A stretch of DNA of 64,000 nucleotides, taken from Planctomycetota bacterium. Lineage in GTDB: Bacteria; Planctomycetota; UBA11346. Numbering within the stretch: the stretch's first letter is position 1; each line of letters opens with the position of its first letter. Positions 20,040 through 37,495 of this stretch are shown here, piece by piece. The notes beneath the pieces were generated by a model. The model worked only from the letters and a program-made list of their open reading frames with translations. It had not been told where the DNA came from and did not search any database. Location: contig JBBRLJ010000022.1 of the NCBI GenBank assembly GCA_038231435.1, positions 30,575 through 94,574 of the forward strand, in the 5' to 3' direction. The position numbers and the translations under genes were made by a program.

Positions 20040-20534
20040 GTGACGATCCATCGGCTGTCTCCCAAAAACCAGGTGACCGTACCCCGCGAGGCGCGCGCGC
20101 TGTCCTCGTGGGGAGCGCCGTCGCCTGGTGCCGAGGCAGCCACCATCCAGCACCTGCGCGGCCGCCGCCACGTGGTGCGCAAACCCGAGAACGGCGAGCA
20201 GTTCCGCATCCTGCTGCTGATGACCGAGATCGAACTGCAGAAGACCGAGAGCCGCATCAGCGCCAACGCCAAGCTCACCGACGACGAGAAATTCGCGGTC
20301 GTCACGCGCCTGAACGACGCGATGAAGACCATGGCCATCGACGCGCAGAACCGCGTGGTGCTTCCGGCCGAGCACATCGCGCACCTCGCCCTCGGCGAAG
20401 GCCGCGACCTGAAGTTCGTGTGCACGAACTCGATGATCCAGATCTGGAATCCCGAGCATTACCAACGCTACGCCAATGACGTCGAGCCGACGTACGACGC
20501 GCTGCTCAACACTCACCTCTTCGATTCTCATTGA
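20040..20534 (+). CDS. mraZ: Divergent MraZ transcriptional regulator
   Basis: First gene of the dcw cluster; HRLSPKNQVTVP and IDAQNRVVLP, ending IQIW (two AbrB-like halves); GGAGGG RBS before GTG. Confidence 0.8.
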   Translation: MTIHRLSPKNQVTVPREARALSSWGAPSPGAEAATIQHLRGRRHVVRKPENGEQFRILLLMTEIELQKTESRISANAKLTDDEKFAVVTRLNDAMKTMAIDAQNRVVLPAEHIAHLALGEGRDLKFVCTNSMIQIWNPEHYQRYANDVEPTYDALLNTHLFDSH

Positions 20535-20560
20535 CGCACCACGCGCAAGGAGCCCCCCCC

Positions 20561-20773
20561 ATGATCGATCCCGCTCTCAACCGCCTGCTCTCGGCCCTCG
20601 ACTCTCTGGTCGACGTGCCGCCGCGGGAACTCGCCTGCGACATCGACGAAGCAAACCTGCGGCTACGCCGCATGGCCCGCTTCGGCGTGCTCGCCGACAA
20701 CAGCCCGTACGTGGCGTTCATCCGCCGCGTCCTCGATGACAAGCGCCACGCCGCCTACGCCGCCAGTGCCTGA
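20561..20773 (+). CDS. Unknown 70-aa protein between mraZ and rsmH
   Basis: AAGGAG RBS, GC3-biased codons, stop overlaps the rsmH start. Confidence 0.7.
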   Translation: MIDPALNRLLSALDSLVDVPPRELACDIDEANLRLRRMARFGVLADNSPYVAFIRRVLDDKRHAAYAASA

Positions 20774-21647
20774 TCCCGAGGCGTCCTCCCTGCACCGACC
20801 GGTGCTGCTCGTCGAGACGATCGAGCGTCTGCGGCCGGCGCCGGGTGAACGGGTGCTCGACTGCACCCTGGGGCTGGGCGGACATGCCGAGGCCATCCTC
20901 GAGCGCGGAGCCGACGTGCTCGGCATCGATCGCGACCCGCGCGCACGCGCGCTCGCGAGCGCCAGGTTGGCGAGGTTCGGTCAGAAGCTGATGGTGCGCG
21001 GCGGGACCTTCGGCCGCGCCGCGGCCGAGCTGGTCGCGGAAGGCCAGCGATTCGACGGCGTGTTGGCGGATCTAGGAGTTTCGAGCATGCAGTTGGACGA
21101 CGAGTCGCGCGGTTTCTCGATCCGCTCGGGCACCCGCGCCGACATGCGCATGGGCGACGATGCCGGCGAGGACGCGATGCAGCTGATCGACCGCCTGTCC
21201 GAGCACGAGCTCGCAGACCTGATCTTCACCTACGGCGAAGAGCGGCTCAGCCGCCGCATCGCGCGGGCGCTCAAGCTCGCGCGCGCCGCCGGCCGCTGCG
21301 AGACCGGCATCGAGCTCGCCGCGGTGGTTCGCGCGGTCGTTCCCGGCCGCCACGATCGCCACCCGGCGATGCGCACCTTCCAGGCGCTGCGCATCGCGGT
21401 GAACGACGAGCTGGGCGAATTGGAACGGCTGCTCCAGGCGCTGCCCGATCTGCTCGTGCCTGGCGGGCGCGCGGTGATCATCAGCTTCCACAGCCTCGAG
21501 GACCGGCCGGTCAAGCAGGCGCTGCGTGCGCATGTGGACGATGGCCGCCTCTCGGACGCGTCGCGCAAGGTGACGGTCGCGAGCACCGACGAATCCACCT
21601 CCAATCCACGTTCCGCCTCGGCCAAGCTGCGCTGGGCCGTGCGCTGA
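20766..21647 (+). CDS. rsmH: 16S rRNA m4C1402 methyltransferase
   Basis: HRPVLL, DCTLGLGGH, DLGVSSMQLD, FQALRIAVNDEL, SFHSLEDR; alternative ATG 20736. Confidence 0.97.
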   Translation: MPDPEASSLHRPVLLVETIERLRPAPGERVLDCTLGLGGHAEAILERGADVLGIDRDPRARALASARLARFGQKLMVRGGTFGRAAAELVAEGQRFDGVLADLGVSSMQLDDESRGFSIRSGTRADMRMGDDAGEDAMQLIDRLSEHELADLIFTYGEERLSRRIARALKLARAAGRCETGIELAAVVRAVVPGRHDRHPAMRTFQALRIAVNDELGELERLLQALPDLLVPGGRAVIISFHSLEDRPVKQALRAHVDDGRLSDASRKVTVASTDESTSNPRSASAKLRWAVR

Positions 21648-21670
21648 AACCCTCTTTCCCCAGGACCTCC

Positions 21671-21955
21671 ATGAACCGCACTGAAATACTGATCCACATC
21701 ATCGTCGCCTCGATCTGGGTATCGCTGGCGGTGGTGCTCGGGCTCAAGATCGCGCTGCTCGGCAGCGAGGAGAGCTCGCTCAACCGCCAGCGCGGGCTCG
21801 ACCGCAAGGCCCAGCTCGAGCTGACCTACCAGAGCGATCGCCTACGCTCGCAGCTCGCCTTCGAGGCCAGCCCGCCGGCGCTCGAGGAAGCGGTGCGCCG
21901 CCTGCAGCTGCCGCTGCATCCGCCCGAGCCGACCATGCGCATGGCCGAACGCTGA
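21671..21955 (+). CDS. ftsL: FtsL-like cell division protein
   Basis: Position between rsmH and the PBP gene; TM followed by a coiled coil. Confidence 0.75.
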   Translation: MNRTEILIHIIVASIWVSLAVVLGLKIALLGSEESSLNRQRGLDRKAQLELTYQSDRLRSQLAFEASPPALEEAVRRLQLPLHPPEPTMRMAER

Positions 21956-22008
21956 CCCCCGGCCCCGTCCCGAGCCTCCCGAAGTCCTCTTAGGCGCCTT
22001 CCTCCATC

Positions 22009-23865
22009 ATGACCCCCGTCGGCAACCAGTACTGGCGCTTCGGCTTCACCATCACGGTGTTCCTCGGCCTCTTCGCCGCCCTCGGGTACCGCCTGCACTA
22101 CCTGCAGGTCGACGAGGGACAGCGCCTTTCCGAGCTCGGCAGCCGCCAGCACGACCGCACCTGGGTGCTGCCGGCGGCGCGCGGAAACATCTACGACGGC
22201 AGCGGCGCCCCGCTCGCCGAATCGACGGGGACCTGGGTCCTGACCGCCGATCCCCTGTACATGGAGGATCGCCTGCGCGCCACCGTCGAACTCAGCCGCA
22301 TCCTCGGCATCCCGCGCGACCAATTGCGCGCCCAGTTCGAAGCGCAGCGCAACGGCCGCCGCATCGCCCGCGGCCTCGATGAAGGCCAGGCCGACGCGAT
22401 CAAGAAGCTCGACCTCGCTGGCGTTTACCTGCGCCGGGAATTCACCCGCATCTACCGCGAAGGCGCCATGGCCGCGCACGTGCTCGGATTCGTCGACGGC
22501 GACGGCAAGGGCGGAGCCGGCATCGAGCACAGCTTCGAGCGCCAGCTCGCCGGCGTTGCCGGGCACGAGACCTTGATGATCGACGCCCATGGCACGCCGG
22601 TGCTGTCCGGATGCGAGAGCGTTCCGGCCAAGCAGGGGGCCAGCGTGCAGCTGACCGTCGACCTCACGCTCCAGCGCCTGCTCGAGAAGGAGCTGATGGC
22701 CGGCGTCGAGAAGCATCAGCCCAAGAACGCCACCGCCATCCTGGTCAGGCCGACCACCGGCGAGATCGTTGCGATGGCCAGCTGGCCGTCGTATTCGCCC
22801 GCCGATCACGAAGGCCTCGACGGCGCCAGCATGCGCAACAACGCCATCGGCTTCGTCTACGAGCCCGGCTCGACGATGAAGCCGCTGGTGGCCGGCGCGG
22901 CGGTGGCCGAGAAGTTGACCACCTGGAGCGAGAACATCTTCTGCGAACATGGGCGCTGGACCTACCGCGAGGGCAAGGCCGCGCGCACCATCTCCGACCA
23001 CAGCTACAGCCACGGCGGCCACGCCATGCTGTCGGTGACCCAGGGCATCGCCCAGTCCGACAACATCCTGATGGCCAAGCTCGGCCTGCGCCTCGGCCCC
23101 GAGCGGCTCCACGACTGGGAGGTGTCCTTCGGCTTCGGCCGCAAGACCGGCATCTGCCTGCCCGGCGAGGACGCGGGCATCATGCTGCCAAAGAAGTCCT
23201 GGAGCGATCTCGGCGCCTGCATGTCGGTGCCGATGGGCCATGAGATCGCGGTCACGCCGCTGCAGCTGGTGATGGCGCACGCCGCCATCGCCAACGGCGG
23301 CGTGTGGCTGCCGCCGCGGCTGGTCAAACGCGTCTACACCCCTGGCGCCGACGGCCGGCTCGAGGATCTGCCGCTGCCCGCGCTCCCCGAAGCCAAGCGC
23401 ATGTTCACCACCGAGGACGCGCTCGAGATCCAGGAGGCCATGACCCACACCATGACCGAGGGCACCGGCAAGGGGGCCGATCTGGTCGGCTATTCAGCCG
23501 CCGGCAAGACCGGCACCGCCGAGAAGATCGTCGATGGCCATTATTCGGACCAGCACCATGTCGGCTCATTCGTGTGCTGGGCGCCCGCCTGCCGCGGCAT
23601 CAAGCCCGAGCTGCTCTGCCTGGTGGTGATCGACGATTCCAGCCGCAATGGCCACTACGGCGCCGAGACCGCGGCGCCGATCGTGCAGCGCATCCTCCAG
23701 CAGGCGCTCGAGGCCAAGGGCGTCGCCAAGGATATGCCGGTGCCCGAGAGCAAGCCGCTGCCATCGCCGCAGCCGGTCCAGCGCCAGTCGCAGGATTCCC
23801 GACAGCAGGTGGCGAGATCCGACGTGCCACCCCGGGATCCAGCCCGCGAACGGAGAAGCCGATGA
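22009..23865 (+). CDS. ftsI: Class B penicillin-binding protein (FtsI/PBP3)
   Basis: ARGNIYD, YEPGSTMK (SxxK), SDN (SxN), KTGT. Confidence 0.95.
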   Translation: MTPVGNQYWRFGFTITVFLGLFAALGYRLHYLQVDEGQRLSELGSRQHDRTWVLPAARGNIYDGSGAPLAESTGTWVLTADPLYMEDRLRATVELSRILGIPRDQLRAQFEAQRNGRRIARGLDEGQADAIKKLDLAGVYLRREFTRIYREGAMAAHVLGFVDGDGKGGAGIEHSFERQLAGVAGHETLMIDAHGTPVLSGCESVPAKQGASVQLTVDLTLQRLLEKELMAGVEKHQPKNATAILVRPTTGEIVAMASWPSYSPADHEGLDGASMRNNAIGFVYEPGSTMKPLVAGAAVAEKLTTWSENIFCEHGRWTYREGKAARTISDHSYSHGGHAMLSVTQGIAQSDNILMAKLGLRLGPERLHDWEVSFGFGRKTGICLPGEDAGIMLPKKSWSDLGACMSVPMGHEIAVTPLQLVMAHAAIANGGVWLPPRLVKRVYTPGADGRLEDLPLPALPEAKRMFTTEDALEIQEAMTHTMTEGTGKGADLVGYSAAGKTGTAEKIVDGHYSDQHHVGSFVCWAPACRGIKPELLCLVVIDDSSRNGHYGAETAAPIVQRILQQALEAKGVAKDMPVPESKPLPSPQPVQRQSQDSRQQVARSDVPPRDPARERRSR

Positions 23866-25364
23866 TCGCCGATGAACGACTCTTCGCCGGGCAGGCGCTC
23901 GAAGGGATTCCGGGAACGAGCCATGCCGGCGTGGCGCGCGACAGCCGCGCCGTCGCGCGCGGAGAAGCCTACGTCGCCATGGGCGAGAACGCGCAGCTGG
24001 CGGGACATGCGGCGCAGGCACGCGCCGCAGGCGCCAGCGTGGTGGTCGCGGAGCGTATCCTCCCTGGCGGCCCGAGCCTGGTCACCCCGCATGCGCGCTG
24101 GTCGTTCGCCCGCGCCAGCGCCGCCGCGCGCGGTGTCGATCGCGACTGCCCGCCGCTGCTCGGCGCCACTGGCACCAAGGGCAAATCGACCACCGTCCAT
24201 TGCGCCTGGTGGGCGCTCGGCCACGGCGCAGCCCGCGTCGGCACCATCGGCTGGCACGATGGGCGCGAGGAACGTCCGAACCGTCAGACCACGCCGCCGC
24301 CGGACGAGCTGCACGATTTCCTGCGCTCGCTCTCGCCGGGCTGCCAGGGCGTGGCGCTCGAGGTCTCGAGTCACGGCGCCGACCAGCAGCGCCTCGCCGG
24401 TCTGCGCATGCGCGCCCTCGCCTGGACCGGGCTCGGCCACGATCATCTCGATTACCACGGCTCGCCCGCATCGTACCTCACCGCCAAGCTGCGCTGCATG
24501 CGCTGGCTCGAGGACGGCGGCAGCTGCATCGTCAACGCCGATGATCCGACCGGATACATCGCCGTGCACGCGGCGCGCGCCGCCGGAGCTTGCGCGATCG
24601 CGCTCGGCTTCGCCGCCGACGCGCCGATCCGCGCCCACCTCGACGCGCGCATCGTGCGCGCTCCCAGTGGCTACCGGCTCGTGCTGCGCGGTGGTGAGCA
24701 CGTCCTGCCTTCGCGCCTGCCGGGCGACTTCAACGCCTGGAACGCGGCCGCCGGTGCGCTGATGGCCGCGGCGGTGGGGGTGCCGCTGGAACTCGCCCTG
24801 GAGCGGTTGGCGTCGATGCCGTCCGTCCCCGGACGCATGGAGCTGCTAGCGCTGGGCCCAGCCACCTATGTGGATTACGCACACACCCCGGAATCGATCA
24901 CCGTCGCGCTCGCCGCGGTGCGCTCGGCGCATCCTGGTCGGCGCGTCGCCATCGTCTTCGGCTGCGGCGGCGATCGCGATCCGAGCAAGCGCGCGCCGAT
25001 GGGGCGCGCCGCCGCCGCCGCGGATGCGGTGGTGATCACCACCGACAATAGTCGTAGCGAAGCCCCCGAGGCGATCGCGCGCGACATCCTCAAGGGCATC
25101 CCCAATCCCGCGACCGCGGCCATCGAGCTCGAGCGCGGCCGCGCGATCGCGCGCGCGCGCGATCTCGCCGGGCCCGAAGGCGTGGTTCTGGTGGCCGGCA
25201 AGGGCCACGAGACCACCCAGGACATCCGCGGAACCGTCTCACCGTGGGATGATCGCGCCTACGTTCGCGCCCTGGCTTCAGCATCCGCCTCGGCCGCTCG
25301 CCCGCAGGGCAGCCCCGCTGCCGGCGACCGTCCTCCAGGCGTTCCACCTGGGACCTCCGCGTGA
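23862..25364 (+). CDS. murE: UDP-MurNAc-tripeptide ligase
   Basis: TGTKGKST, EVSSHG, DHLDYHG, VDYAHTP, FGCGGDRD, DNSR, AGKGHE. Confidence 0.93.
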   Translation: MIADERLFAGQALEGIPGTSHAGVARDSRAVARGEAYVAMGENAQLAGHAAQARAAGASVVVAERILPGGPSLVTPHARWSFARASAAARGVDRDCPPLLGATGTKGKSTTVHCAWWALGHGAARVGTIGWHDGREERPNRQTTPPPDELHDFLRSLSPGCQGVALEVSSHGADQQRLAGLRMRALAWTGLGHDHLDYHGSPASYLTAKLRCMRWLEDGGSCIVNADDPTGYIAVHAARAAGACAIALGFAADAPIRAHLDARIVRAPSGYRLVLRGGEHVLPSRLPGDFNAWNAAAGALMAAAVGVPLELALERLASMPSVPGRMELLALGPATYVDYAHTPESITVALAAVRSAHPGRRVAIVFGCGGDRDPSKRAPMGRAAAAADAVVITTDNSRSEAPEAIARDILKGIPNPATAAIELERGRAIARARDLAGPEGVVLVAGKGHETTQDIRGTVSPWDDRAYVRALASASASAARPQGSPAAGDRPPGVPPGTSA

Positions 25365-26824
25365 TGGCATCCGCCTCGCCCATGTCGCCCGCCGGCACCC
25401 CGGTCGCGTTCGCGCTCAGCCGTCAGCAGGCCGAGCGCGTCACCGGCGGACGCTGGATCGGCACGGTGAGCGATGTGCGCCTGCGCGGAGCCGCCAGCGA
25501 CAGCCGCCAGGTGCGCAAGGGCTGCCTGTTCGCCTGCCTGCCTGGAGCGCGCGTCGATGGGCATGATTTCGCCGCGGGCGCGGTCGCGCAGGGAGCGGCG
25601 CTGATCCTCGCCGCCAAGGCGCTGCCCGGGATCGCACCGCAGGCGGCGCCGGTGCTGATCGTCGCCGACGTGGCGCTGGCGCTCGCCGCGCTGGCCGCCG
25701 AGCTGCGCCGTGGGCTCGACGCGATGGCCTGGATCGGCGTCACCGGATCCAACGGCAAGACTACGGTGAAGGAGCTGATCGCCGCGGCGTGCTCGGCGGT
25801 CGGATCCGTACACGCTACGCTCGGCAACCTCAACAACCACCTCGGCGTGCCGCTCACCGTGCTCAACACCGCCGTCGACGCCAAGTTCGCGGTGGTCGAG
25901 ATGGGCGCGAACCACGCCGGCGAGATCGCCCAGCTTGCGGCGATCGCCAGCCCGTCGATCGGAGTGATCTCCTCGCTCGGCCCGGCCCATCTCGAGGGTT
26001 TCGGCTCGCTCGAGGGAGTGGCGCGCGCCAAATCCGAGCTGTTCGCCGCGCTGCCCCCAGGTGCCACCGCCATCCTCGGCGTCGCCGGCCTCGACATGGT
26101 GGCGGCACGCCACGGCACTTCGATGGCGAAGCTGCTTGCGCCGGTTCGCGATGCGGCCGCAGGCCGGCGCCTGGTGCTGGTCGGCGGCAACGAGTGTCCC
26201 GTCGACGGCGCGGTGGAGGACGACGCGATCGTGCTGCGCACGCCCGAGGGCGAGGCGCGCCTGCCGCTGTTGGGCGCGCACAACCTGGCCAACGCCGCGG
26301 TGGCGTACCAGGCCGCGCTCGCCGCCGGCGTCCCCGGGGCGCGCGCCCTGGCCGGGATGGCGCGTGTCCTGCCGGTCGGCGGCCGCTTGGCGGCGCGCCG
26401 CGCCGGCGCCCACGTCATCCTCGACGACACCTACAACGCCAACCCCGGTAGCATGATGGCCGGTCTCCAGGTGCTCGCATCCCGTCCCGGCCTGCGCCTC
26501 GCGGTGCTCGGGGGCATGGGCGAGCTCGGTCCGGACGCCGCCCACGGCCACCGGCTGGTCGGGACCGAGGCCGCGCGCCTCGGTCTGCCGTTGATAGCGG
26601 TCGGCGCGCGCGGCGGTGAGATCCTCGATGGCTATCGTTCCGCCGGCGGTGCCGATGGCGTGCTGGTCGCCACACGCGAGGACGCGGTCGCGGCGGCGAT
26701 GGCGAAGCTCGCGGCCGGTCCCACCACGGTGCTGGTCAAGGCCAGCCGCTCGAGCGGACTCGAGGCGGTGGTCGAGGGCCTGATCGCGTCGATCACCGGC
26801 GGAAGTCGGGGTGGCGCATGTTGA
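25361..26824 (+). CDS. murF: UDP-MurNAc-pentapeptide (D-Ala-D-Ala adding) ligase
   Basis: VTGSNGKTTVKE, GNLNNHLGVP, EMGANH, DDTYNANP, LVKASR. Confidence 0.96.
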   Translation: MMASASPMSPAGTPVAFALSRQQAERVTGGRWIGTVSDVRLRGAASDSRQVRKGCLFACLPGARVDGHDFAAGAVAQGAALILAAKALPGIAPQAAPVLIVADVALALAALAAELRRGLDAMAWIGVTGSNGKTTVKELIAAACSAVGSVHATLGNLNNHLGVPLTVLNTAVDAKFAVVEMGANHAGEIAQLAAIASPSIGVISSLGPAHLEGFGSLEGVARAKSELFAALPPGATAILGVAGLDMVAARHGTSMAKLLAPVRDAAAGRRLVLVGGNECPVDGAVEDDAIVLRTPEGEARLPLLGAHNLANAAVAYQAALAAGVPGARALAGMARVLPVGGRLAARRAGAHVILDDTYNANPGSMMAGLQVLASRPGLRLAVLGGMGELGPDAAHGHRLVGTEAARLGLPLIAVGARGGEILDGYRSAGGADGVLVATREDAVAAAMAKLAAGPTTVLVKASRSSGLEAVVEGLIASITGGSRGGAC

Positions 26825-28038
26825 AATACCTGGCGCTCCTGCAGAACCACTTCGGCCCCTTCCGCGTCTTCGAATACGTCTCGAGCCGCGTGGTGCTCTC
26901 GGCGGTGACCGGATTCGTGCTGATGCTGGTGGTGATGCCGCCGCTGATCCGTTGGCTCAAGCGCAAGAAGTTCGGCGAGAGCGGTGCCAAGGGCGACGGC
27001 GCGGTGGTGGTCGACGCGATGCGCGACAGCAAGAAAGGCACGCCGACCATGGGCGGCCTGGGCCTGGTCGCGTGCATCGCCGCTACCGCGCTGCTGTGGT
27101 GCGATCCAACCGAGGCGCGCACCTGGCTGATGGTGTTCGGACTGGTGATGTTCGCGCTGGTGGGCTATCTCGACGACCGCACCAAGATCTTCAAGGGCGC
27201 CAAGGGCACGCCGACCTCGGTGAAGCTGGGCATCCAGCTCGGCGTCGCGCTGGCGTGCGGCATCGCCCTGTACCTGATCAACGAGCACTACTATCAATCG
27301 CTGGTGCTCGGCAAGCTTTCCGAACTCTCGGTCGCAGACCATCTCATCGGCTCGCCGCCCGAGTTCTACCGCAAGCACTTCGCGCTGACCGGAGACACCT
27401 ACACCGTGCGCCTGGCCGTCCACCAACTGGTCTTCCCCTTGATGAAGGTGGAATACGCGGTGAGCCTGGGGATATTCTCGATCTTCTGGGTGATGTTCGT
27501 CACCACCGCCTGCGCCAACGGGGTGAATTTCACCGACGGCATGGATGGGCTCGCCGCCGGCACCATGTTCATCGCCGCGATCGCCTTCATGGTCATCGCC
27601 TACGTCACCAGCCGCGTCGACAGCGCCGACTACCTCAAGGTGCTGTACGTGCCGGTCGGACAGGAGGTGGCGGTATTCTGCGCAGCGATTGCCGGGGCGT
27701 GCCTCGGATTCCTGTGGTTCAACGGCTCCCCGGCCGAGGTCTTCATGGGCGATACCGGCAGCCAGGCGCTCGGCGGCAGCCTGGGCCTGGTGGCCCTGAC
27801 CACCAAGCAGGAGTTCCTGCTCGTGCTCGTCGGCTTCATCTTCGTCATCGAGGCCGGCTCGGTCGCTTTGCAGATCGCGAGCTACCGCCTGCGCGGCGGC
27901 AAACGCATCTTCCTGTGCGCGCCGATCCACCACCACTTCCAGTACAAGGGTTGGCCCGAATCGAAGATCGTCATGCGCTTCTGGATCATCGCCGCGCTCG
28001 CCGCCCTGCTCGCCCTCGCCACCCTGAAGCTCCACTGA
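26818..28038 (+). CDS. mraY: Phospho-MurNAc-pentapeptide transferase
   Basis: KKGTPTMGG, GYLDD, NFTDGMDGLA, FMGDTGS, APIHHHF. Confidence 0.97.
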   Translation: MLKYLALLQNHFGPFRVFEYVSSRVVLSAVTGFVLMLVVMPPLIRWLKRKKFGESGAKGDGAVVVDAMRDSKKGTPTMGGLGLVACIAATALLWCDPTEARTWLMVFGLVMFALVGYLDDRTKIFKGAKGTPTSVKLGIQLGVALACGIALYLINEHYYQSLVLGKLSELSVADHLIGSPPEFYRKHFALTGDTYTVRLAVHQLVFPLMKVEYAVSLGIFSIFWVMFVTTACANGVNFTDGMDGLAAGTMFIAAIAFMVIAYVTSRVDSADYLKVLYVPVGQEVAVFCAAIAGACLGFLWFNGSPAEVFMGDTGSQALGGSLGLVALTTKQEFLLVLVGFIFVIEAGSVALQIASYRLRGGKRIFLCAPIHHHFQYKGWPESKIVMRFWIIAALAALLALATLKLH

Positions 28039-28089
28039 CATGCACACGATCGCCGCAGCCCGCACGCCGCACGCCGCACGGATCCCGTC

Positions 28090-29274: not shown

Positions 29275-29282
29275 GCGGGCAT

Positions 29283-29340
29283 CCACGGTCCACGGACGCT
29301 TCTCCAGGTGTCCGACGACGGACGACGGACGATGGACGGT
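29283..29340. repeat. Heptamer repeat tract (GACGACG/GACGATG) between ftsW and murG
   Basis: ccgacgacggacgacggacgatggacgg. Confidence 0.7.
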
Positions 29341-29346
29341 CCCTCC

Positions 29347-30579
29347 ATGCCTAAAGCCCAAGGCGTACTGTTTTGCGGCGGCGGTACCGGCGGCCATGTG
29401 CTGCCCGGTCTCGCGGTGGCGGCGGAACTGCGCGCGCGTGGCGAACCTGCGCTGCGTTGGATCGGCGATCCCCAGCGCATCGAGGCCAAGCTGGTCCCCG
29501 CCGCCGGCATCGTCTTGCTGCCGTGGGGCCTGTCGCGCCCACGGCCCATGGACCCGCGTTGGCTGGCGGCTTCGGCGCGCCAGGCCTGGCACTGCTTCCG
29601 CGAACTGCGCGCCCACCCGCCGCGGGCGATCGTCGCGCTCGGTGGCTATGCCGCGTTGCTTCCCGGCCTGCTCGCGCCGCTGTTGCGCCGACCGTTGGTG
29701 GTCATGGAGCAGAACGCCCGTCCCGGACGCACCAACAAGCTGCTGGCGCGCTTCGCTCGCGCCGTGGTCACCCAGTTCCCCGAGGCCCAGGAAGGTCTGC
29801 CGCTGGGCAAGGTGCGCATGCTCGGCAATCCGGTGCGTGCCATCGCCGCGCTGCCACGTGGCCGCGACCAGCGTCTGCGCGTGCTGGTGGTCGGCGGCAG
29901 CCTGGCCGCGAAGAGTCTGAACGATCTGGTGGTCGGCGCGGCTGCCGGACTCGCCGCCGTGCGCGACCTGGTGATCGTCCATCTCGCCGGCGAGGACGAT
30001 CGCGCCCGGGTCGCCGCCGCCTACCTCGCCGCCGGGGTCGAGGCCGAGGTGCACGGCTTCTTCAGCGATATGCCCGGCCTCTACCGCCACATCGACCTCG
30101 CCATCACCCGCGCCGGCGCCACCACCGTCGCCGAGCTGTGCGCCGCGGGCATCGGAGCGCTCTACGTGCCATTGCCCTGGGCCGCCGACGACCACCAGAC
30201 CGCGAACGCCCAGGCGATCGCGCGCATCGGCGGCGCCATCGTCCTGAACCAGGCGACCGTGACTCCCGAGCAGCTCGCCGGGCACATCGCGCGTCTGGCC
30301 GCCGACCGCGCCGAGGTCGCGCGCTTGGGCGTGGCGGCGCATACGCTCGCCCGTCCGCGCGCCGCGGCACACGTGGCCGAACTGGTGCGCCGCGCAGGTC
30401 GCGTCGCGGGCCTGGAGCGGATCCGCTCGCGCCGCGCCGACGCGCGTTCTCGCTGGTCGCGGGCGATTTCCGGCGCCAGTCCGCACCAGAATTCCAGCCG
30501 ACGGGTTCCGGTGACGCTTAACCAGACCCTGAGTCCGACTCTCAAACCGACTCTCAACCAGAACGAGGAGCGACCATGA
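29347..30579 (+). CDS. murG: Lipid II N-acetylglucosaminyltransferase
   Basis: GGGTGGH, EQN, GNPVR, GGSLAA, RAGATT, DDHQTANA. Confidence 0.96.
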   Translation: MPKAQGVLFCGGGTGGHVLPGLAVAAELRARGEPALRWIGDPQRIEAKLVPAAGIVLLPWGLSRPRPMDPRWLAASARQAWHCFRELRAHPPRAIVALGGYAALLPGLLAPLLRRPLVVMEQNARPGRTNKLLARFARAVVTQFPEAQEGLPLGKVRMLGNPVRAIAALPRGRDQRLRVLVVGGSLAAKSLNDLVVGAAAGLAAVRDLVIVHLAGEDDRARVAAAYLAAGVEAEVHGFFSDMPGLYRHIDLAITRAGATTVAELCAAGIGALYVPLPWAADDHQTANAQAIARIGGAIVLNQATVTPEQLAGHIARLAADRAEVARLGVAAHTLARPRAAAHVAELVRRAGRVAGLERIRSRRADARSRWSRAISGASPHQNSSRRVPVTLNQTLSPTLKPTLNQNEERP

Positions 30580-32090
30580 TCTGCAGCCTCTTCCGTGGAC
30601 GTCGCGTACATCTCATGGGCATCGGTGGAGCAGGGGTCAGCGCCCTGGTGCCGCTCCTGCAGGAGGTCGGAGCCATCGTCTCTGGCTGCGACTGCAGCGA
30701 ATCGCCAGTGGTGGCGCGATTGCGTGCCGAGGGTGTGCCGATCGCCCAGGGCCATTCGATGGCCCACGGCGAGGACGCCGACCTGGTGGTGCACACCGCC
30801 GCGGTCGCCATCGACCATCCCGAGCTGGTCGCGGCTCGTGAACGCGGCGTGCCGGTGATCACCCGCGGTGAATGCCTGGTCGAGCTGATGACGGGTACGC
30901 GCACCATCGCCGTCTCGGGCAGCCACGGCAAGACCTCCACCACCTGGATGATCGGCCACCTGCTCACCGAGGCTGGCCTGGATCCGGTGGTGATGGTCGG
31001 CGGATCGGTGGCCTCGCTCGGGGGCGGCGCGCGCGCCGGTCACAGCGACCTGTTCGTCGCCGAGACCGACGAGAGCGACGGCAGCTTCGCCGAGGTCGAG
31101 CCCGAGATCGCCATCCTCACCAACCTCGATCACGAACACCTGCGCCACTACGGCGGCTTCGCGGCCATGGAGGACAGCTTCAACGCGTGGCTCGCGCGCG
31201 TGCCCAAGAGCGGCGCGGTGATCGTGCCCACCAGCGGGCTGTCGGCGCGCGTCACCACCGGCGTTTCCGCACGGATCATCCGCTGCGGGCTCGATTCCGG
31301 CGACTACCATGCCCGGGATCTCGAGCTCGGGCCGGATGGCAGCCGCATGCGCGTCATCGGTTTCGGCGAGGATCTCGGCGAGGTGCGCGTCACCATCCCC
31401 GGCGCGCACATGGCGCACAACGCGCTGATGGCGATCGCCGCCGCCCGCCACGTCCAGCCGGGCTGCGACCTGTCGGCGCTCGCCCGCTGCGAGCGCGTAC
31501 GCCGGCGTTTCACCGTCCACGGCAGCCCCGGCGGAGTGCGCGTGGTCGAGGACTACGGCCACCACCCGACCGAGGTGCGCGCCACCATCGCGGCGGCCAA
31601 GCTCGGCGGCGGCAACGTCCACGTGGTGTTCCAGCCGCACCGCTACACCCGCACCGCCGACTCGTTCCCCGATTTCGTCGCCGCCTTCGACCAGGCACAT
31701 ACCCTCGCGCTGCTGCCGATCTACGCCGCCAGCGAGCAGCCGATCCCCGGCATCGATTCGCGTCTCCTGGCCGATTCGATCCGCATGCGCCAGGGCGGCC
31801 CGCCGACGGTGTTCTACACCGCCGACGAGCAGGAGATCGTCGAGCTGATCGGCCGCGAGGCCGAGTCCGGTGACACCGTGCTGATCCTCGGCGCCGGCGA
31901 CGTGGGCAACCTGAGCGGGCCGTTCATGCGTTTTTTTCGCGTCGCCGGTCCCGACCACGCGGTCGCGGCCGGCCAACCACCCGGCCGTCCACACGGGGAC
32001 GCCCGAGCGCCCGCAAGCGGCCCCGCCGGCGCGATGGCAAGTGACCAATCGGATGAGACCGCGCACCACGACGTCAAGGACGTAGCCTGA
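30576..32090 (+). CDS. murC: UDP-MurNAc--L-alanine ligase
   Basis: GIGGAGVS, GSHGKTST, ETDESD, DYGHHPTE, FQPHRYTRT. Confidence 0.96.
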   Translation: MICSLFRGRRVHLMGIGGAGVSALVPLLQEVGAIVSGCDCSESPVVARLRAEGVPIAQGHSMAHGEDADLVVHTAAVAIDHPELVAARERGVPVITRGECLVELMTGTRTIAVSGSHGKTSTTWMIGHLLTEAGLDPVVMVGGSVASLGGGARAGHSDLFVAETDESDGSFAEVEPEIAILTNLDHEHLRHYGGFAAMEDSFNAWLARVPKSGAVIVPTSGLSARVTTGVSARIIRCGLDSGDYHARDLELGPDGSRMRVIGFGEDLGEVRVTIPGAHMAHNALMAIAAARHVQPGCDLSALARCERVRRRFTVHGSPGGVRVVEDYGHHPTEVRATIAAAKLGGGNVHVVFQPHRYTRTADSFPDFVAAFDQAHTLALLPIYAASEQPIPGIDSRLLADSIRMRQGGPPTVFYTADEQEIVELIGREAESGDTVLILGAGDVGNLSGPFMRFFRVAGPDHAVAAGQPPGRPHGDARAPASGPAGAMASDQSDETAHHDVKDVA

Positions 32091-32092
32091 CC

Positions 32093-33028
32093 GTGTTCAC
32101 CCCGGATTTCATCCACGCCAACCAGGTCGGCGAGCTGCGGCTCGCAACCCTGACCACCATGCGCATCGGCGGACCTGCGACGGTGGTGACGCTCGATAGC
32201 CGGGGCTCGCTCGCCGAGCTGCTCGAACGACCGCACCGCTGGCTGGGCAAGGGAGCGAATCTGCTGGTCGGCGATCAGGGAGTCAGCGAGCCGGTGGCGC
32301 GCCTCGGACCATCGTTCGCCCGCTGCGAGATCGGCCCGCTGCGTAGTGGCGTCGCCCTGGTGGCGGCGGGGGCCGCGCTCGATCTCGCCGAACTGATCGC
32401 CGCCTGCGTGAAGTCCGGGCTCGCTGGTCCCGAGGGTTTGTCCGGCGTCCCGGCGACGGTCGGCGGTGCGCTACGCATGAACGCCGGCACCAGCACCTGC
32501 TGGATGCTCGACTGGGTGTCGCGTGTCGAGGTGGTGCTGCCCGGCACCACCGCACCGCGTTGGCTCGAACGCGCCGAGCTGCCGGCGTCGTACCGCGATT
32601 GCGGCCTGCCCGTTGGCACGCTATTCCTCGGCTGCGAACTCTCGCTCGCCCACGGCGACCCCGGCGCCTTGAAGGCGCAGGGCACCAAGCTCAAGCAGGC
32701 GAAGGCCGCCTCCCAGCCGTTGGCCATGCCCAGCGCCGGCTGCGTATTCAAGAATCCCTCGCCGCAGCTGCCGGCCGGCAAGCTCATCGACGAGCTCGGG
32801 CTCAAGGGCACACGCGTCGGCGGCGCCATGGTCAGCCCGGTGCATGCGAACTTCATCGTCAACCCCGAGCGCGTCGCCAGCTCGGCCGACGTCGCGGCGC
32901 TGGTGCGCCTGATCCGCGAGCGCGCCTGGCGCGAGCGCGGCGTCGAGCTGCGCATGGAGGTCGAGACGTGGAATTGTCCCGACGAGCTGAAGCTGCATCC
33001 CAGGGATCTGATCGGGAGCGTGGCATGA
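32093..33028 (+). CDS. murB: UDP-N-acetylenolpyruvoylglucosamine reductase
   Basis: TTMRIGG, GKGANLL, GGALRMNAG, SAGCVFKNP, HANFIVN. Confidence 0.95.
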   Translation: MFTPDFIHANQVGELRLATLTTMRIGGPATVVTLDSRGSLAELLERPHRWLGKGANLLVGDQGVSEPVARLGPSFARCEIGPLRSGVALVAAGAALDLAELIAACVKSGLAGPEGLSGVPATVGGALRMNAGTSTCWMLDWVSRVEVVLPGTTAPRWLERAELPASYRDCGLPVGTLFLGCELSLAHGDPGALKAQGTKLKQAKAASQPLAMPSAGCVFKNPSPQLPAGKLIDELGLKGTRVGGAMVSPVHANFIVNPERVASSADVAALVRLIRERAWRERGVELRMEVETWNCPDELKLHPRDLIGSVA

Positions 33029-33033
33029 AGGAT

Positions 33034-33085
33034 CGTCCGAACTCCGATGTCCGTCGTCCATCGTCCAGCATCGGGACGACCGATG
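33034..33085. repeat. Heptamer repeat tract (CGTCCAT/CGTCCGT-like) between murB and ddl
   Basis: gtccgtcgtccatcgtccagcatcgggacgaccgatg. Confidence 0.6.
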
Positions 33086-33116
33086 TCCCCCTGACCACGA
33101 GCCAGGGACGGTTCCC

Positions 33117-34097
33117 ATGCTGATCGACGTCATCATGGGCGGCCCTGGCCGCGAGGCGGCGGTCAGCCGCATGTCGGGGTCCGGCATCGCCGCTGGCCTG
33201 ACCCGGAAGGGCCACGATGTGGTCATCGTCGATCTGCGCGGTGAGCTCGAACCGGCCCGCCTGCGCGCGGGCGCGCTCGCCTTCAACATCGTGCACGGAA
33301 CCTACGGCGAGGACGGTCGCCTGCAGGCCGCGCTCGAGGCGCTCGGCAAGTCTTACGTCGGTTCCGACGCGGTCGCCAGCGCCCTGTGCATGGACAAGGA
33401 CAAGACCAAGAAGCGCCTGCAGGACGCCGGCATCCGCGTGCCATGGGGCGTGCGCGTGCATCTCGGACAGCCGTTCTCGCCCAAGGACCTCAAGCTGCCG
33501 AACCATGGCGGCCTGGTGCTCAAGCCTGCGTGCGATGGCAGCTCGGTGGGGCTGCGCATGGTCGCCAATCCCAGCTTCGTGCTGCCGGCGATCGAGGAGC
33601 TGATCAAGGATGTCGGCGCCGTCCCCTACCTGATCGAAGAGCGCCTGCCCGGCCCGGAATTCACCGTGGCGGTGCTCGAGGACGGCCCCGCGCCGCGCGC
33701 GCTACCACCGATCCGCGTACGTCCCGCCGAGGGGGTCTACGACTACGAGGCGAAATACACCCGCGACGACACCGCCTACGAGATCCTCGACGATCCTGTG
33801 GTCGCGGCCAAGCTCGGCGAGATCGCGGTTGCTGCGTATCGCGCCTGCGGGTGCCGGGATCTGGCGCGCGTGGACATCATGGCCACCGCCGATGGCGGCC
33901 TGGCGGTGCTCGAACTGAACACCCTGCCCGGCTTCACCAGCCACAGCCTGGTGCCGAAGGCGGCGGCCGCCGCGGGCATCGGTTTCGACGATCTGGTTGA
34001 TGCGCTCGCGCGCCGCGCCGCCGCCCGCCCGATCACGAACTCTCCATCCCCGTCAGCGAATCCAACCAAGCCGTCCCAGGGAAGCGAACGCCCATGA
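33117..34097 (+). CDS. ddl: D-alanine--D-alanine ligase
   Basis: HGTYGEDG, KPACDGSSVG, YDYEAKY, ELNTLPGFT. Confidence 0.95.
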   Translation: MLIDVIMGGPGREAAVSRMSGSGIAAGLTRKGHDVVIVDLRGELEPARLRAGALAFNIVHGTYGEDGRLQAALEALGKSYVGSDAVASALCMDKDKTKKRLQDAGIRVPWGVRVHLGQPFSPKDLKLPNHGGLVLKPACDGSSVGLRMVANPSFVLPAIEELIKDVGAVPYLIEERLPGPEFTVAVLEDGPAPRALPPIRVRPAEGVYDYEAKYTRDDTAYEILDDPVVAAKLGEIAVAAYRACGCRDLARVDIMATADGGLAVLELNTLPGFTSHSLVPKAAAAAGIGFDDLVDALARRAAARPITNSPSPSANPTKPSQGSERP

Positions 34098-35206
34098 GCA
34101 CCGACCACAGCGATGACGGCGATCCGCAGGCCCTGCTCGAGGCGGCCGAGCGCCGCAAGCGCCAGGCCAAGCGCGCGGCTCCAGACAAGCCCTGGGTCTC
34201 TCCGGAGATCGCGGCGCTCACGCCGGTGAAGCCGTCGCCGGTGGTGGCCGCGGTATCGGTGGCGGTGTCGGCTGATGGCGAGCCCGAGACCAAGCGCGCA
34301 CGCAAGCGCGTGGTCGCCAAGCGCCAGCCCCTGAGCACCGACACCCTGTCCGACGAGGCCGAGGCGAAACGTCCGCGCCGTGCTGCGAGCTTGGCGCGCC
34401 CGACCTTCGGCTCGGGCGCCTGGGCGCGTCTCGGAGCCTGGGGATTCGCGGCGTGCGCCGCGGCTTTGGCAGTGCTGGTGATGACCCTGGACGCGCTCCA
34501 CGAGATCCCCGCCCCGTTGCCGGTAGGCTCTATCCGCATCAGCTGGCTGAACGGGCCGCAGCTGCCGCCCAGCGAAGTGGTGGGCTGGCTCGCGCGCTTT
34601 CCCGCGCGCGATCGCATCAAGGATCCGAATCCCTGGGTGCTCGATCAGCTCGCCGAGTACTTGAAGCAGCAACCGGCGGTGGCCACGGTGCAGCAGGTGC
34701 GCCTGGTCCACGAGCCATCGGCCAACGGCAAGGGCGTGAAGCGCACCCTCGAACTGGTGCTGCGCTTGCGGCAACCGGTGATGCCGGCGATCCTCGCCAC
34801 CGGCGAGCGCGCCTGGGTCGATGCCGAGGGCCGCGTCCTGCCCGGCACCATTCCCGGACCGGTCATCCGCCGGCCGCTCCTGCGTGGTGTCGAGGCAGCC
34901 AAGCCCGGCGTGGTGCTCTCGGCCCTGGCGATGTGGGCGGCGCTCGAGCCCCAGCTCGAACAGGGTCTGATCACCGACGTGGTGCTCAACGATGCACTCG
35001 ACGAACGCGGCGCGCGTGGCATCGTGCTCTATACCCGCCAAGGCAGCCGCCTGATCTGGGGCGATCCCGCCGAAGAGCGCTACGGCGTCAAGCCCGATGC
35101 CAAGGCGCGCGACCTCGCGCACACCATCCGCTGCCAGGGCGATCTCGGGCGCATCGCCTCGATCAACGTCCGCTTCAGCCAACCCTTCTTCGTCTTCCGC
35201 GAATGA
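34094..35206 (+). CDS. ftsQ: FtsQ/DivIB-like protein
   Basis: Position after ddl; long cytoplasmic N-terminus, one TM, LRQPV...WVDAEGRVL and final SINVRF as in FtsQ. Confidence 0.75.
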   Translation: MSTDHSDDGDPQALLEAAERRKRQAKRAAPDKPWVSPEIAALTPVKPSPVVAAVSVAVSADGEPETKRARKRVVAKRQPLSTDTLSDEAEAKRPRRAASLARPTFGSGAWARLGAWGFAACAAALAVLVMTLDALHEIPAPLPVGSIRISWLNGPQLPPSEVVGWLARFPARDRIKDPNPWVLDQLAEYLKQQPAVATVQQVRLVHEPSANGKGVKRTLELVLRLRQPVMPAILATGERAWVDAEGRVLPGTIPGPVIRRPLLRGVEAAKPGVVLSALAMWAALEPQLEQGLITDVVLNDALDERGARGIVLYTRQGSRLIWGDPAEERYGVKPDAKARDLAHTIRCQGDLGRIASINVRFSQPFFVFRE

Positions 35207-35251
35207 TGATTCCTTCGCGACCGACGGCAACTCACGGACACCGCCCCTAGC

Positions 35252-36469
35252 ATGCGCATTTCATCCGAGCATTTCCTGGTGATCCTCTCGATCTCCAGCA
35301 GGCACGTATCCGCCACCGTCGCGGCCATCCATCCCGAGAAGGATGAGAAGGTGGTCGCGCACAAGACCATCGAGTGCTCATGGCACGAGCTGACGCCGCG
35401 CGGGCGGCTCGAGATCGCCGGTGAGGCACTGCGCCAGGCCAACGAGTCGGCGGGTGTCGAGGCCTGGTCGGTGTTCCTGTCGTGCAACGACACCTCGATC
35501 GCCTCGCGCATCGCCGTCGGCTGGGCCTCGCCGGGCGAGGAGATGCCGCTGACCGAGAATGAGCGCGCCTGGGCGCTGCGCCGCGCGCGCGAGCAGGCCA
35601 CCGGCGCCGACCGCGAGGTCGTCGACGTGGTGCCGGTGCAGTGGACGGTGCGCGGTCGCGACGGCGAGCACGAGGTCGACGACCCGGTCGGCTCGATCGG
35701 CAACCATCTCACCTGCCAGGCGCTGCTGGTCACCGCGCGGCGCGGCTTCCGCTCCGAGATGGCCGACATCGCGCGCGGGCTCGGCGTCGAGCTCGAAGGC
35801 GTCATCCCGCAACCGCTGGCGCTCTATCGCGGCGTCTCGGGCAAGCTGCGCTCGCGCGGCAGTTCGCTGGTGATCGATTTCGGCGCTCGCCACACCAACT
35901 TCCTGGTCCGCCGCAAGGACAAGCTGCTGCATGTCGAGACCTTCGGCTTCGGCGGCGACGACCTCACCGCGCGCCTCGCCGAACGCCTGGACATCGACGC
36001 CGACAAGGCCGAGGCGATCAAGCGCGAGCTCGACATCGGCGTCTACGCGGGCGCCGGCGACGGCCCGCAGGGGCAGCAGTTCATCTGGAACGATCTGCAG
36101 GAGCGCCACGCGCTGCTGGGCCCGGCCACCGAGATCTGCGCCGACGCGGTCAGCTCGTTCTTCAAGGAGCGCGCGCGCGACCTACGCGATCACGGCTACC
36201 TCGCCCAGCAGGGGCAGATCCACCTGGTGGGACGCTCGAGCGCCCTCGGCGGGCTGGCTCTGCACCTGCGCGAGATCTTCGACCTGCCGGTGCTGCTCGG
36301 CACCGGCGATCGCAATCGCCAGCCTGGCGACGAGCTGGACGGCCTGCTCACCACCGGGCTGGTCTGCGCCGCCGGCGACCACCGCCGTGAGCGCCTGGCC
36401 CTGCATGCTGGCAGCCTGAGCAAGCGGGCGAGCGGCGTGTGGTCTTGGTTGACGCATGCGCTCAGCTGA
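35252..36469 (+). CDS. ftsA: Divergent FtsA-like actin-fold protein
   Basis: Position after ftsQ; VDDPVG (1C domain), LVIDFGA, GGDDLT...AEAIKR, C-terminal amphipathic GVWSWLTHALS. Confidence 0.8.
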   Translation: MRISSEHFLVILSISSRHVSATVAAIHPEKDEKVVAHKTIECSWHELTPRGRLEIAGEALRQANESAGVEAWSVFLSCNDTSIASRIAVGWASPGEEMPLTENERAWALRRAREQATGADREVVDVVPVQWTVRGRDGEHEVDDPVGSIGNHLTCQALLVTARRGFRSEMADIARGLGVELEGVIPQPLALYRGVSGKLRSRGSSLVIDFGARHTNFLVRRKDKLLHVETFGFGGDDLTARLAERLDIDADKAEAIKRELDIGVYAGAGDGPQGQQFIWNDLQERHALLGPATEICADAVSSFFKERARDLRDHGYLAQQGQIHLVGRSSALGGLALHLREIFDLPVLLGTGDRNRQPGDELDGLLTTGLVCAAGDHRRERLALHAGSLSKRASGVWSWLTHALS

Positions 36470-36483
36470 GGGGTGAGGGGGCG

Positions 36484-36512
36484 AAAAGCAGAAAGCAGAA
36501 AGCAGAAAGCAG
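36484..36512. repeat. Tandem heptamer (AAAGCAG)x4 directly after ftsA
   Basis: aaaagcagaaagcagaaagcagaaagcag. Confidence 0.9.
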
Positions 36513-36841
36513 ACATCCGGCAATCCCGCGGCCACGGCGGCGGGAGTCCGGATGGTTCCATACGCAGCGTCTGCATCAGGAGATGTGGCTGGAAACCCAA
36601 TGGGAAAAGACCCGTAACAAATGCCCCCGCGGTGCCGATACCGGTAGCCGAGGAGCGTCGTTTGGCCGTCCACCGTCGATCCATCCAGAATCCTTCCGCC
36701 GGGCCACGCTTGCGTGGCGGCCGGGGCAAGGCCAGGCTCGTGGCCAGGTCCGGGGTTCGGGAGCGGGGTCCGCGTGAGGCATGCCATCCAGGGTCCGTGC
36801 CTGCTTCGCGGTCAACACCCGGGCATCCTACGGACACACGC

Positions 36842-37495
36842 GTGAGCGGGCCGCTCGACCACGCCTCAGACGCCTCAGACGCCTCAGACGCCGATGACGC
36901 TGCTGACGCGTCCGGACTCGGGCCGAGCCAGGCGGCGGCCGAGGCCTTCACCCGCCACTGGATCCGCTGCCAACCCAACATCGCCGCCTACATCCGCTCG
37001 CTGGTCCCGCAGATGCACGATGCCGAGGATCTGCTGCAGAACGTCGCGGTGGTGATGCTGCGCAAGTTCGCCCAGTACGATCCTGAACGCCCGTTCCTGC
37101 ATTGGGCGCTGGGCATCGCGCGCAACGAGGCGCTCGGCCACCGGCGCTCGCACGCGACGCAGCGCCTGGTGCGGAATGCCGATCTCGCCGAGGTGCTGGC
37201 CGACGCCTGCGAGGAGGTCGCTCCCGAGATGGACGAGCGCCTGGGCGCACTGTCGCGCTGCCAGGAGAACCTGCAGCCGCGCGCGCGCGAGGTGCTGCGC
37301 CTGCGCTACCAGGATGCGCTGTCGCCGCCGGACATCGCCACGCGCATGAAGATGTCGCATGGCGCGGTCCGCGTCGCCTTGACGCGCGCGCGCGCGGCGC
37401 TGATGGCGTGCATCGAGCGCGGGCGCGCCGCCATCGGGCTCGATACCTTGGATCCGTCCGTCGATGATCCCTTTGACGACGGGAGCAGAGCATGA
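36842..37495 (+). CDS. ECF sigma-70 factor, Rhodopirellula/Verrucomicrobium-type
   Basis: DAEDLLQNV, FLHWALGIARNE, LRLRY, LTRARAALMACIE; start uncertain. Confidence 0.9.
   Translation: MSGPLDHASDASDASDADDAADASGLGPSQAAAEAFTRHWIRCQPNIAAYIRSLVPQMHDAEDLLQNVAVVMLRKFAQYDPERPFLHWALGIARNEALGHRRSHATQRLVRNADLAEVLADACEEVAPEMDERLGALSRCQENLQPRAREVLRLRYQDALSPPDIATRMKMSHGAVRVALTRARAALMACIERGRAAIGLDTLDPSVDDPFDDGSRA

Follow-up and report, generated by a model that had tools for sequence, protein, structure and literature searches.

A planctomycete division cluster that ends at ftsA: septal genes retained, FtsZ undetected and FtsA remodelled

The way in which planctomycetes manage to divide without FtsZ has long been an unsolved problem, and it is raised in a particular form by the 64,000-nucleotide stretch analysed here (hereafter 'the window'; Planctomycetota bacterium, GenBank assembly GCA_038231435.1, contig JBBRLJ010000022.1, positions 30,575 to 94,574, forward strand), in which a nearly whole division and cell wall (dcw) gene cluster runs up to ftsQ and ftsA and then stops, at the point where ftsZ would be expected. 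Is FtsZ really missing and, if so, what has become of FtsA? The window lies on contig C22, one of the 108 contigs of a 5.2-Mb assembly (completeness 87.64%, contamination 3.35%), and it was analysed together with 48 genomes of its family, denoted f1, all of which are incomplete assemblies (61–96%). FtsZ is very probably truly absent from this family, in which the septal genes, ftsA among them, are retained.

Indeed, a search with the FtsZ/tubulin profile PF00091 matched nothing in the window's own genome (0/1) or in 36 f1 genomes (0/36), the same search being positive in 13 of 14 controls; Tubulin_2 was also without a match in the own genome (0/1). Across 401 genomes of the phylum, TIGR00065 gave 25 matches, none above cut-off. 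The sole f1 match is a 38-residue canonical FtsZ-like stretch in genome G008 (L061, G008:C55), which ends at an N-containing codon within an aldo-keto reductase frame and was rejected as an assembly chimera. This locus and L044 (G255:C220) carry canonical FtsZ N-terminal fragments fused to unrelated frames, and are probable chimeras mimicking ftsZ. A further profile was trained on divergent planctomycete FtsZs, after removal of 2 chimeric matches, 2 long fusion proteins, 2 tubulin-like proteins of family f87 and 1 N-gapped sequence; its four weak partial matches in the 48 f1 genomes were all saccharopine dehydrogenases and were discarded. Once enlarged with the most decayed FtsZ relics, the profile retrieved nothing from 25 f1 genomes (0/25; 5 candidates scored per genome), and a six-frame search of 65,991 own-genome segments with three FtsZ profiles reached at best 12.0, 15.0 and 10.8 bits. 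For comparison, the first profile scored five of six unseen relics from family f57 (see below) at 30–44 bits and the sixth at 9.7. The hidden Markov model search of the whole genome and its relatives, proposed when the locus was first read from its sequence, thus found no FtsZ in the own genome or in any of the 48 f1 genomes. This total blank is not due to incompleteness, because FtsA was recovered from 48, MreB from 45 and DnaN from 41 of the same 48 genomes. As for FtsZ regulators, ZapA was found in one genome of 48, the one being G417 (7% contamination), and SepF and MinC in none of five (0/5 each), so that the GTPase motifs, tail peptide and regulators that mark a canonical FtsZ-based divisome were not found as such in the f1 searches.

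At the locus itself, the sequence-only reading had described a cluster that runs in order from mraZ to ftsQ-ftsA and ends there, the ftsZ slot being left to a heptamer repeat, some 370 nt of DNA and an unrelated extracytoplasmic function (ECF) sigma factor gene. Annotation of the open reading frames (ORFs) of the window by Pfam and NCBIfam profile scans bears this out: positions 20040–36469 of the plus strand hold mraZ-mraW-ftsL-like-ftsI-murE-murF-mraY-ftsW-murG-murC-murB-ddl-ftsQ-ftsA, with a weak match for the ftsL-like gene and no murD in the cluster (none follows mraY; it is located on contig C20 of the same genome). The ~370 nt after the repeat resemble non-coding DNA (GC content at third codon positions, GC3, 0.64 versus 0.88–0.92 in genes), Pfam confirms the sigma gene, and the tubulin motif GGGTG[TS]G occurs in none of the six frames of the window, as had been noted. 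The misassembly at the ftsA 3′ end that had been considered is unsupported: contigs of the probable source sequencing run break at the heptamer repeat, but another sample from that study yielded a 273-nt contig that matches 36400–36672 at every position and bridges the repeat. The idea that the repeat, or the gap of 370 nt, stands in for ftsZ functionally was rejected in view of the 84 exact heptamer arrays of at least three copies in the whole genome, the low GC3 and the ORFs downstream of ftsA, which vary among relatives' loci; the ECF sigma/FecR pair was likewise rejected as a part of the system, being unconserved in the loci read. The repeat and the sigma gene are incidental to the division question. 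The claim that a Planctomycetota lineage keeps ftsA, ftsQ, an ftsL-like gene, ftsW and ftsI without detectable FtsZ stands, on scans of the window and of the 48 family genomes.

The retained FtsA is a real yet remodelled protein. Its predicted model has a mean confidence (predicted local distance difference test, pLDDT) of 86, the ten best Foldseek matches are all FtsA structures (template modelling score, TM, 0.66–0.70), and its matches in the ESM Atlas are FtsA-like clusters only. TIGR01174 gave 81 bits, below its cut-off of 175.85, though it was the best among the families matched. PilM, an ATP-binding and peptide-binding actin homologue, is the next-best structural likeness (TM 0.48–0.58), but FtsA models score higher and the gene lies in the dcw cluster; a misplaced PilM or MreB was rejected, the genome encoding both separately (PilM on contig C69, TIGR01175, 202 bits). 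Seven related loci from metagenome-assembled genomes (MAGs) of Planctomycetota carry FtsAs 57–79% identical to that of the window. The ratio of non-synonymous to synonymous substitution rates (dN/dS) is 0.03–0.12 in five of six pairs, indicating purifying selection, the FtsA tree has a long stem and a short crown, and conservation of subdomain 1C and the core across relatives (46–59%) is like that of FtsI or MurF (52–57%). Moreover, ftsQ lies directly upstream of ftsA in 21 of 30 f1 loci. With the canonical FtsAs of E. coli, Vibrio maritimus, S. aureus and T. maritima (PDB 7q6d, 7q6f/7q6i, 3wqu, 4a2a), the window FtsA shares the 1C/SHS2 fold, the place after ftsQ, five invariant core residues and a C-terminal aromatic helix, whereas it is only 12–20% identical to them, has altered catalytic and FtsZ-binding sites and a clamp-motif-like loop for the 2B hairpin, and lacks an FtsZ partner.

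These alterations were counted in an alignment of 90 distinct f1-type FtsA homologues (E. coli numbering for E14, D210, G214, R300, E303 and G337). The equivalents of D210, G212, G236, K258 and G336 are invariant (90/90), whereas the E14-equivalent position is acidic in just 4/90 and two new arginines occupy the positions of G214 (87/90) and G337 (90/90). E14 and D210 are both reported as required for E. coli FtsA function (PMC10213515), so that a canonical ATPase cycle is unlikely in f1 FtsA, whose phosphate-1 acidic residue has been lost. The FtsZ-peptide pocket of FtsA is described as comprising approximately residues 234–245 and 294–304 (PMC10769210). In the f1 homologues, arginine stands at the R300 column in 1/90 and an RxxE pattern in 0/90. 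We take R300 and E303 to be the residues of 2B that bind the FtsZ C-terminal peptide. The acidic residues of 1C are largely kept (D120 77/90, E122 88/90), as is a C-terminal W-x-W-L helix (W397 75/90, W399 89/90, L400 87/90), which in the window FtsA has low model confidence and a hydrophobic moment of 0.38, versus 0.78 in E. coli FtsA.

The most distinctive change concerns the 2B hairpin of other FtsAs, replaced in f1 by a variable loop that ends in G-Q-x-x-[IL]-[WF]. Q275 and [IL]278 are found in 90/90 homologues and [WF]279 in 89/90, so that Q-x-x-[LI]-[FW] is present in 89/90, while in the 11 preceding columns the top residue reaches only 20–43%; the segment is predicted to be flexible (residues 267–282 with pLDDT <50 in the monomer model). 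This ending resembles the motif by which clamp-binding proteins such as DnaE, MutS, Hda (QLSLF/QLSLPL) and ImuB (QLPLW) dock on the sliding clamp DnaN, with which it shares Gln at position 1, an aliphatic residue at 4, an aromatic one at 5 and a flexible loop. The Hda motif QLSLF (PMC5397184) and the Trp-ending QLPLW of mycobacterial ImuB (PMC10421592) are reported clamp binders, the own-genome DnaE and MutS carry QETLF and QLTLF, and 19 of the 25 F-ending variants of the FtsA motif read Q-x-[ST]-[LI]-F. It differs in its carrier, an actin-family division protein rather than a DNA enzyme, and in its mostly aromatic third residue and final Trp. Since such a pattern arises by chance, conservation rather than the match itself is the signal. 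An RNase H-superfamily protein of the same genome, L224 (G000:C4:133435-134304), whose frame ends in QTTLF, is also a probable clamp binder.

The family's own DnaN was then modelled with an 85-residue piece of FtsA (232–316), using our own alignments and three controls. In the own genome, dnaN lies at G000:C6:69949-71097 on the minus strand. The complex scored 0.62, versus 0.01 for the best control; the mark that it passed is attained by 116 of the 157 solved pairs and by 2 of the 215 mismatched ones, rates that are rough for own alignments. The runs share at least 66% of contacts, with a partner pLDDT of at least 70. FtsA 274–279 is placed on the DnaN equivalents of E. coli T172, G174, H175, L177, P242, V247 and M362–R365, with Q275 at M362/M364 and motif position 3 at G174, which would be the cleft and register described for Hda (PMC5397184). 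We consider the chances that f1 FtsA binds the sliding clamp to be evenly balanced.

Is f1 an isolated case? FtsZ-derived genes were found in 30 of the 401 phylum genomes, in families f13 (2), f88 (1), f59 (2), f77 (6), f47 (10) and f57 (9). By coordinates, 29 of the 30 directly follow ftsA, f88 carrying a relocated ftsZ, and among the 13 long ftsZ loci read, ftsA ends the dcw cluster in 12, the thirteenth beginning just before ftsA (loci of f13, f47, f59, f77 and f88: L039–L060, L064, L106–L113). An intact T4 loop (GGGTG) is seen in f13 and f88 and a degraded one in f59, f77 and f47; all 19 FtsZs aligned from these five families retain the C-terminal tail peptide. In f57, by contrast, the genes that follow ftsA (L103:10690-11661, L104:11801-12781, L105:6809-7786) are relics without T4 loop and tail peptide (6/6), invisible to NCBIfam and TIGR00065, which nevertheless fold as FtsZ (E-value 1e-17, TM 0.66–0.69); their FtsA has lost R300/E303 and kept the ATP-site acids. 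Families f17 (L100:10706-14630, L101:4715-8855) and f31 (L102:592-2740) also keep ftsA without detectable FtsZ. R300 and E303 occur together in 16/16 FtsAs from families whose FtsZ bears the tail peptide, and R300 in 0/22 from f57, f17, f31 and f1, a pattern that supports a real loss of FtsZ independently of assembly. The GTPase-decayed FtsZs of f47 all end in QxxLF after the FtsA-binding tail peptide (9/9; L050–L057, L060, last 25 residues).

Planctomycetes are reported to lack ftsZ on the basis of described or reference genomes (PMC12283558, PMC12673574), and the gene is held to have been lost in all of them and to be absent already from their last common ancestor (PMC12673574). The 30 FtsZ-derived genes conflict with this published view of a universal lack. 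For the FtsZ of f13, no close donor was found among the candidates scored (28–38% identity outside its own group). In trees of RpoB and RpoC (62 and 39 rows, with E. coli as only outgroup, long branches and 15 of 76 listed genomes left out), f1, f31, f57 and f17 fall outside a clade uniting the tail-bearing families with most families having neither gene (Shimodaira–Hasegawa-like approximate likelihood ratio test, 100, 39-row tree). As ftsZ-derived genes are carried by families to either side of the deepest split, FtsZ was seemingly lost more than once, and the simplest history is that of an ancestor with ftsA-ftsZ followed by repeated loss. The sequence-only reading had seen in this lineage an 'intermediate'; the term fits f1 as a grade but does not make it ancestral to cultured planctomycetes, f1 being a separate deep branch in these trees. 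The graded states, namely ftsA-ftsZ with an intact GGGTG, a GTPase-decayed but tail-bearing FtsZ, a tail-less relic with an R300-less FtsA, FtsA alone (f1) and neither gene, allow the loss of FtsZ to be followed stage by stage. Other tubulin-like proteins in the phylum are unlike the dcw FtsZ: 445–460 aa with GGGTGGG in f87 (L058, L059), and multidomain forms of ~660 aa in f12 (L062, L063).

Overall, the best explanation, which we put forward tentatively and rate at somewhat under an even chance, is that FtsZ was lost family-wide, that the septal module was kept and that FtsA was repurposed as an adaptor that may read the clamp. The septal wall-synthesis module (FtsQ, FtsL-like, FtsW, FtsI) would stay working without FtsZ. 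FtsA would serve as an adaptor at the membrane and hydrolyse ATP barely or not at all, a condition for which PilM offers a precedent as an actin-fold adaptor independent of hydrolysis. Having swapped its positional partner, it would hold the clamp rather than the FtsZ tail and, through 1C and perhaps via the basic helix of the FtsQ tail, recruit or activate FtsQL-FtsWI, thereby coupling wall synthesis, spatially or temporally, to the replication machinery. This helix-plus-basic motif, found in 23/25 f1 FtsQs and 0/9 FtsQs of other families (the pattern being drawn from the f1 set), is a candidate FtsA ligand on sequence grounds. In E. coli, FtsA is reported to recruit the late proteins via 1C and to be linked to FtsW activation (PMC11323482), which makes a residual role independent of FtsZ plausible, and FtsA probably still acts with the septal synthase in f1. 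Thus, of the earlier suggestion that FtsA, FtsQ, FtsL and FtsWI are kept and organised without FtsZ, the retention and the undetectable FtsZ are verified, whereas the organising of FtsQL/WI by FtsA is something we infer. It is doubtful, although conceivable, that the clamp sets the division site; a clamp serving as replacement for FtsZ, with FtsA docking on clamps that remain behind where replication takes place and assembling FtsQL-FtsWI there with no tubulin homologue, we likewise regard as rather unlikely. If such clamp-guided division were true, the QxxLF ending of the f47 FtsZs (9/9) would be a parallel route to it.

Several observations weigh against this explanation. An independently decayed FtsZ relic could escape detection, because one true relic scored merely 9.7 bits; the f1 genomes are all incomplete, and five candidates per genome were scored with the enlarged profile. 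The contrast at R300 rests on few independent lineages. As for the clamp motif, 64 of 90 homologues, that of the window included, end in W with a mostly aromatic third residue, unlike QL[SD]LF, and own-genome frames of at least 250 aa contain 48 instances of Q-x-[STD]-[LI]-F, among them some in a kinase, a permease and a transposase. Clamp-peptide complexes have already been solved, so that the success of a model shows likeness rather than binding, and the modelled docking used own alignments and 85 residues of FtsA. FtsB was not found (best E-value 0.006, under cut-off) and FtsN was not identified (two weak SPOR matches) in these searches. The sixth FtsA pair has a dN/dS of 0.31, and, of the 30 loci, 3 have ftsQ inverted downstream of ftsA and 6 have no ftsQ detected within 1.5 kb. 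Lastly, most retained dcw genes are reported as non-essential in Planctopirus limnophila (PMC12283558, PMC12673574).

Other explanations have to be weighed. In a Chlamydia-like arrangement, which has in our view a minor though real chance, an MreB scaffold (with RodZ) would have replaced FtsZ and would guide PBP2/RodA and FtsWI, FtsA being an accessory activator and its clamp contact secondary. The family does encode MreB (45/48), MreC (5/5) and two transpeptidases (21/23), the own genome carries a RodA-like protein and a 1117-aa PBP2-like protein, FtsK is present, and chlamydial MreB with RodZ is reported to be able to substitute for FtsZ activity in E. coli (PMC7029139). However, MreB-type genes serve ordinary elongation too, FtsA is also present, unlike in the Chlamydia-type gene set, and such a scaffold leaves the frozen new motif of FtsA unexplained. 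A smaller chance goes to a direct organisation of FtsQL/WI by FtsA, in which QxxIW would bind a partner other than the clamp (a second FtsA subunit, FtsK or a protein peculiar to the family) and the FtsQ-tail helix would replace the FtsN/FtsZ peptides. The motif occupies the place of the 2B hairpin that bears R286 in E. coli, the FtsQ tail motif is family-specific, and the acidic residues of 1C, a subdomain reported to bind the FtsN tail in E. coli (PMC11323482), are conserved. Against a non-clamp ligand stand the F-ending variants, most of which follow the clamp pattern, and the model, which would put the motif in the clamp pocket in a known register.

It is also conceivable, if improbable, that FtsA has left division and now tethers the replisome or chromosome to the membrane as a clamp-binding, ATPase-poor anchor, the other dcw genes being ordinary or dispensable. 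A clamp-like motif combined with a membrane helix would suit that role, as would the detachment or inversion of ftsA with respect to ftsQ in some members and the non-essential dcw genes of P. limnophila (PMC12283558), but the conservation of 1C and the core at the level of FtsI or MurF and the frequent ftsQ-ftsA adjacency argue for a continued part in division. Finally, FtsZ could be present but missed, being relocated and decayed past profile detection, unassembled or misassembled. The relocated ftsZ of f88, the f57 relics, which escape TIGR00065 and NCBIfam yet fold as FtsZ, and the canonical-like match in G008 show how this might happen; nevertheless, we deem it highly improbable, given that real matches number 0/48 while single-copy markers are found in 41–48 of 48 genomes, that the G008 match breaks off in a reductase frame, that FtsA is without the FtsZ-tail pocket and that a contig from a second sample spans the junction. 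Moreover, a relic of the f57 type, without tail peptide or GTPase loops, would not restore a canonical Z-ring.

Division without FtsZ is already known for the phylum, and f1 adds a variation rather than a new category. Like the cultured Planctomycetota and Chlamydiota, as described (PMC12283558, PMC12673574), f1 keeps peptidoglycan genes, MreB and FtsK, while neither FtsZ nor FtsB was found. In those groups, ftsA is reported lost 'with few exceptions' or 'in most species' and the cluster eroded (PMC12283558, PMC12673574), whereas f1 has ftsA in 48/48 genomes and a nearly whole cluster. Among literature titles and passages, mostly titles and abstract starts, we found no description of a planctomycete family in which all members have FtsA and none has FtsZ, nor of ftsZ retained in planctomycete MAG families. 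The f1 FtsA motif is thus a testable lead on how a division wall is placed without FtsZ and, if FtsA binds DnaN, there would be a direct link between an actin-family division protein and the replication clamp.

The features of the locus are collected in table 1. The ftsL-like protein has orthologues 38–46% identical in all three relatives whose loci extend that far, and a RodA-like paralogue, separate from ftsW, lies on contig C69.

Table 1. Features of the dcw cluster and its downstream junction, with positions in the window.
Feature	Position	Strand	Basis
mraZ	20040-20534	+	PF02381, 28.5 bits, above cut-off
mraW/rsmH	20736-21647	+	PF01795, E-value 8e-82
ftsL-like, small bitopic protein	21671-21955	+	place between mraW and ftsI; NF053549 merely E-value 0.31
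ftsI (class B penicillin-binding protein, PBP)	22009-23865	+	PF00905 and PF03717
murE	23862-25364	+	Mur ligase match
murF	25361-26824	+	Mur ligase match
mraY	26818-28038	+	PF00953
ftsW	28090-29274	+	PF01098, E-value 9e-97; top NCBIfam match TIGR02614
murG, murC, murB, ddl	29308-34097	+	Pfam matches
ftsQ, with long cytoplasmic N-terminal tail	34094-35206	+	PF03799, E-value 0.0015, 19.8 bits, just below cut-off 21
helix-plus-basic motif of FtsQ tail, residues 14-22	34133-34159	+	alignment-derived pattern
ftsA, divergent, 405 aa	35252-36469	+	PF02491 and PF14450 above cut-off
clamp-binding-like motif G274-Q-Q-F-I-W279, in loop replacing subdomain 2B hairpin	36071-36088	+	alignment of FtsA homologues and complex model
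C-terminal aromatic helix of FtsA, probable membrane-targeting sequence	36416-36466	+	conserved W/W/L
heptamer array AAAGCAG x4, ordinary intergenic repeat	36485-36512	+	84 heptamer arrays genome-wide
ECF sigma factor, probable start 36842	from 36842	+	PF04542/PF08281; GC3 step at 36842
FecR-domain protein	37492-39744	+	PF04773

The arrangement of these genes varies among the genomes read. At loci L023, L025, L026, L115, L117 and L119 of the family, ftsA either runs opposite to ftsQ or lies away from the dcw cluster, and f17 has two additional genes between ddl and ftsQ, repeat-rich and transglycosylase-like by sequence reading. Among the other wall and cytoskeletal genes of f1, the PBP2-like protein L244 (G000:C2:171039-174389) is a 1117-aa open frame whose ~600 N-terminal residues have no domain match, and a second long transpeptidase frame recurs across the family. 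A MamK/BeeR-like actin homologue of the own genome, L241 (G000:C28:27180-28322; NF040964, 391 bits, cut-off 400), is another possible cytoskeletal element. Further downstream in the window, positions 39798–42398 encode a fusion of an ABC sugar-binding protein with a permease domain (PF01547 and PF00528).

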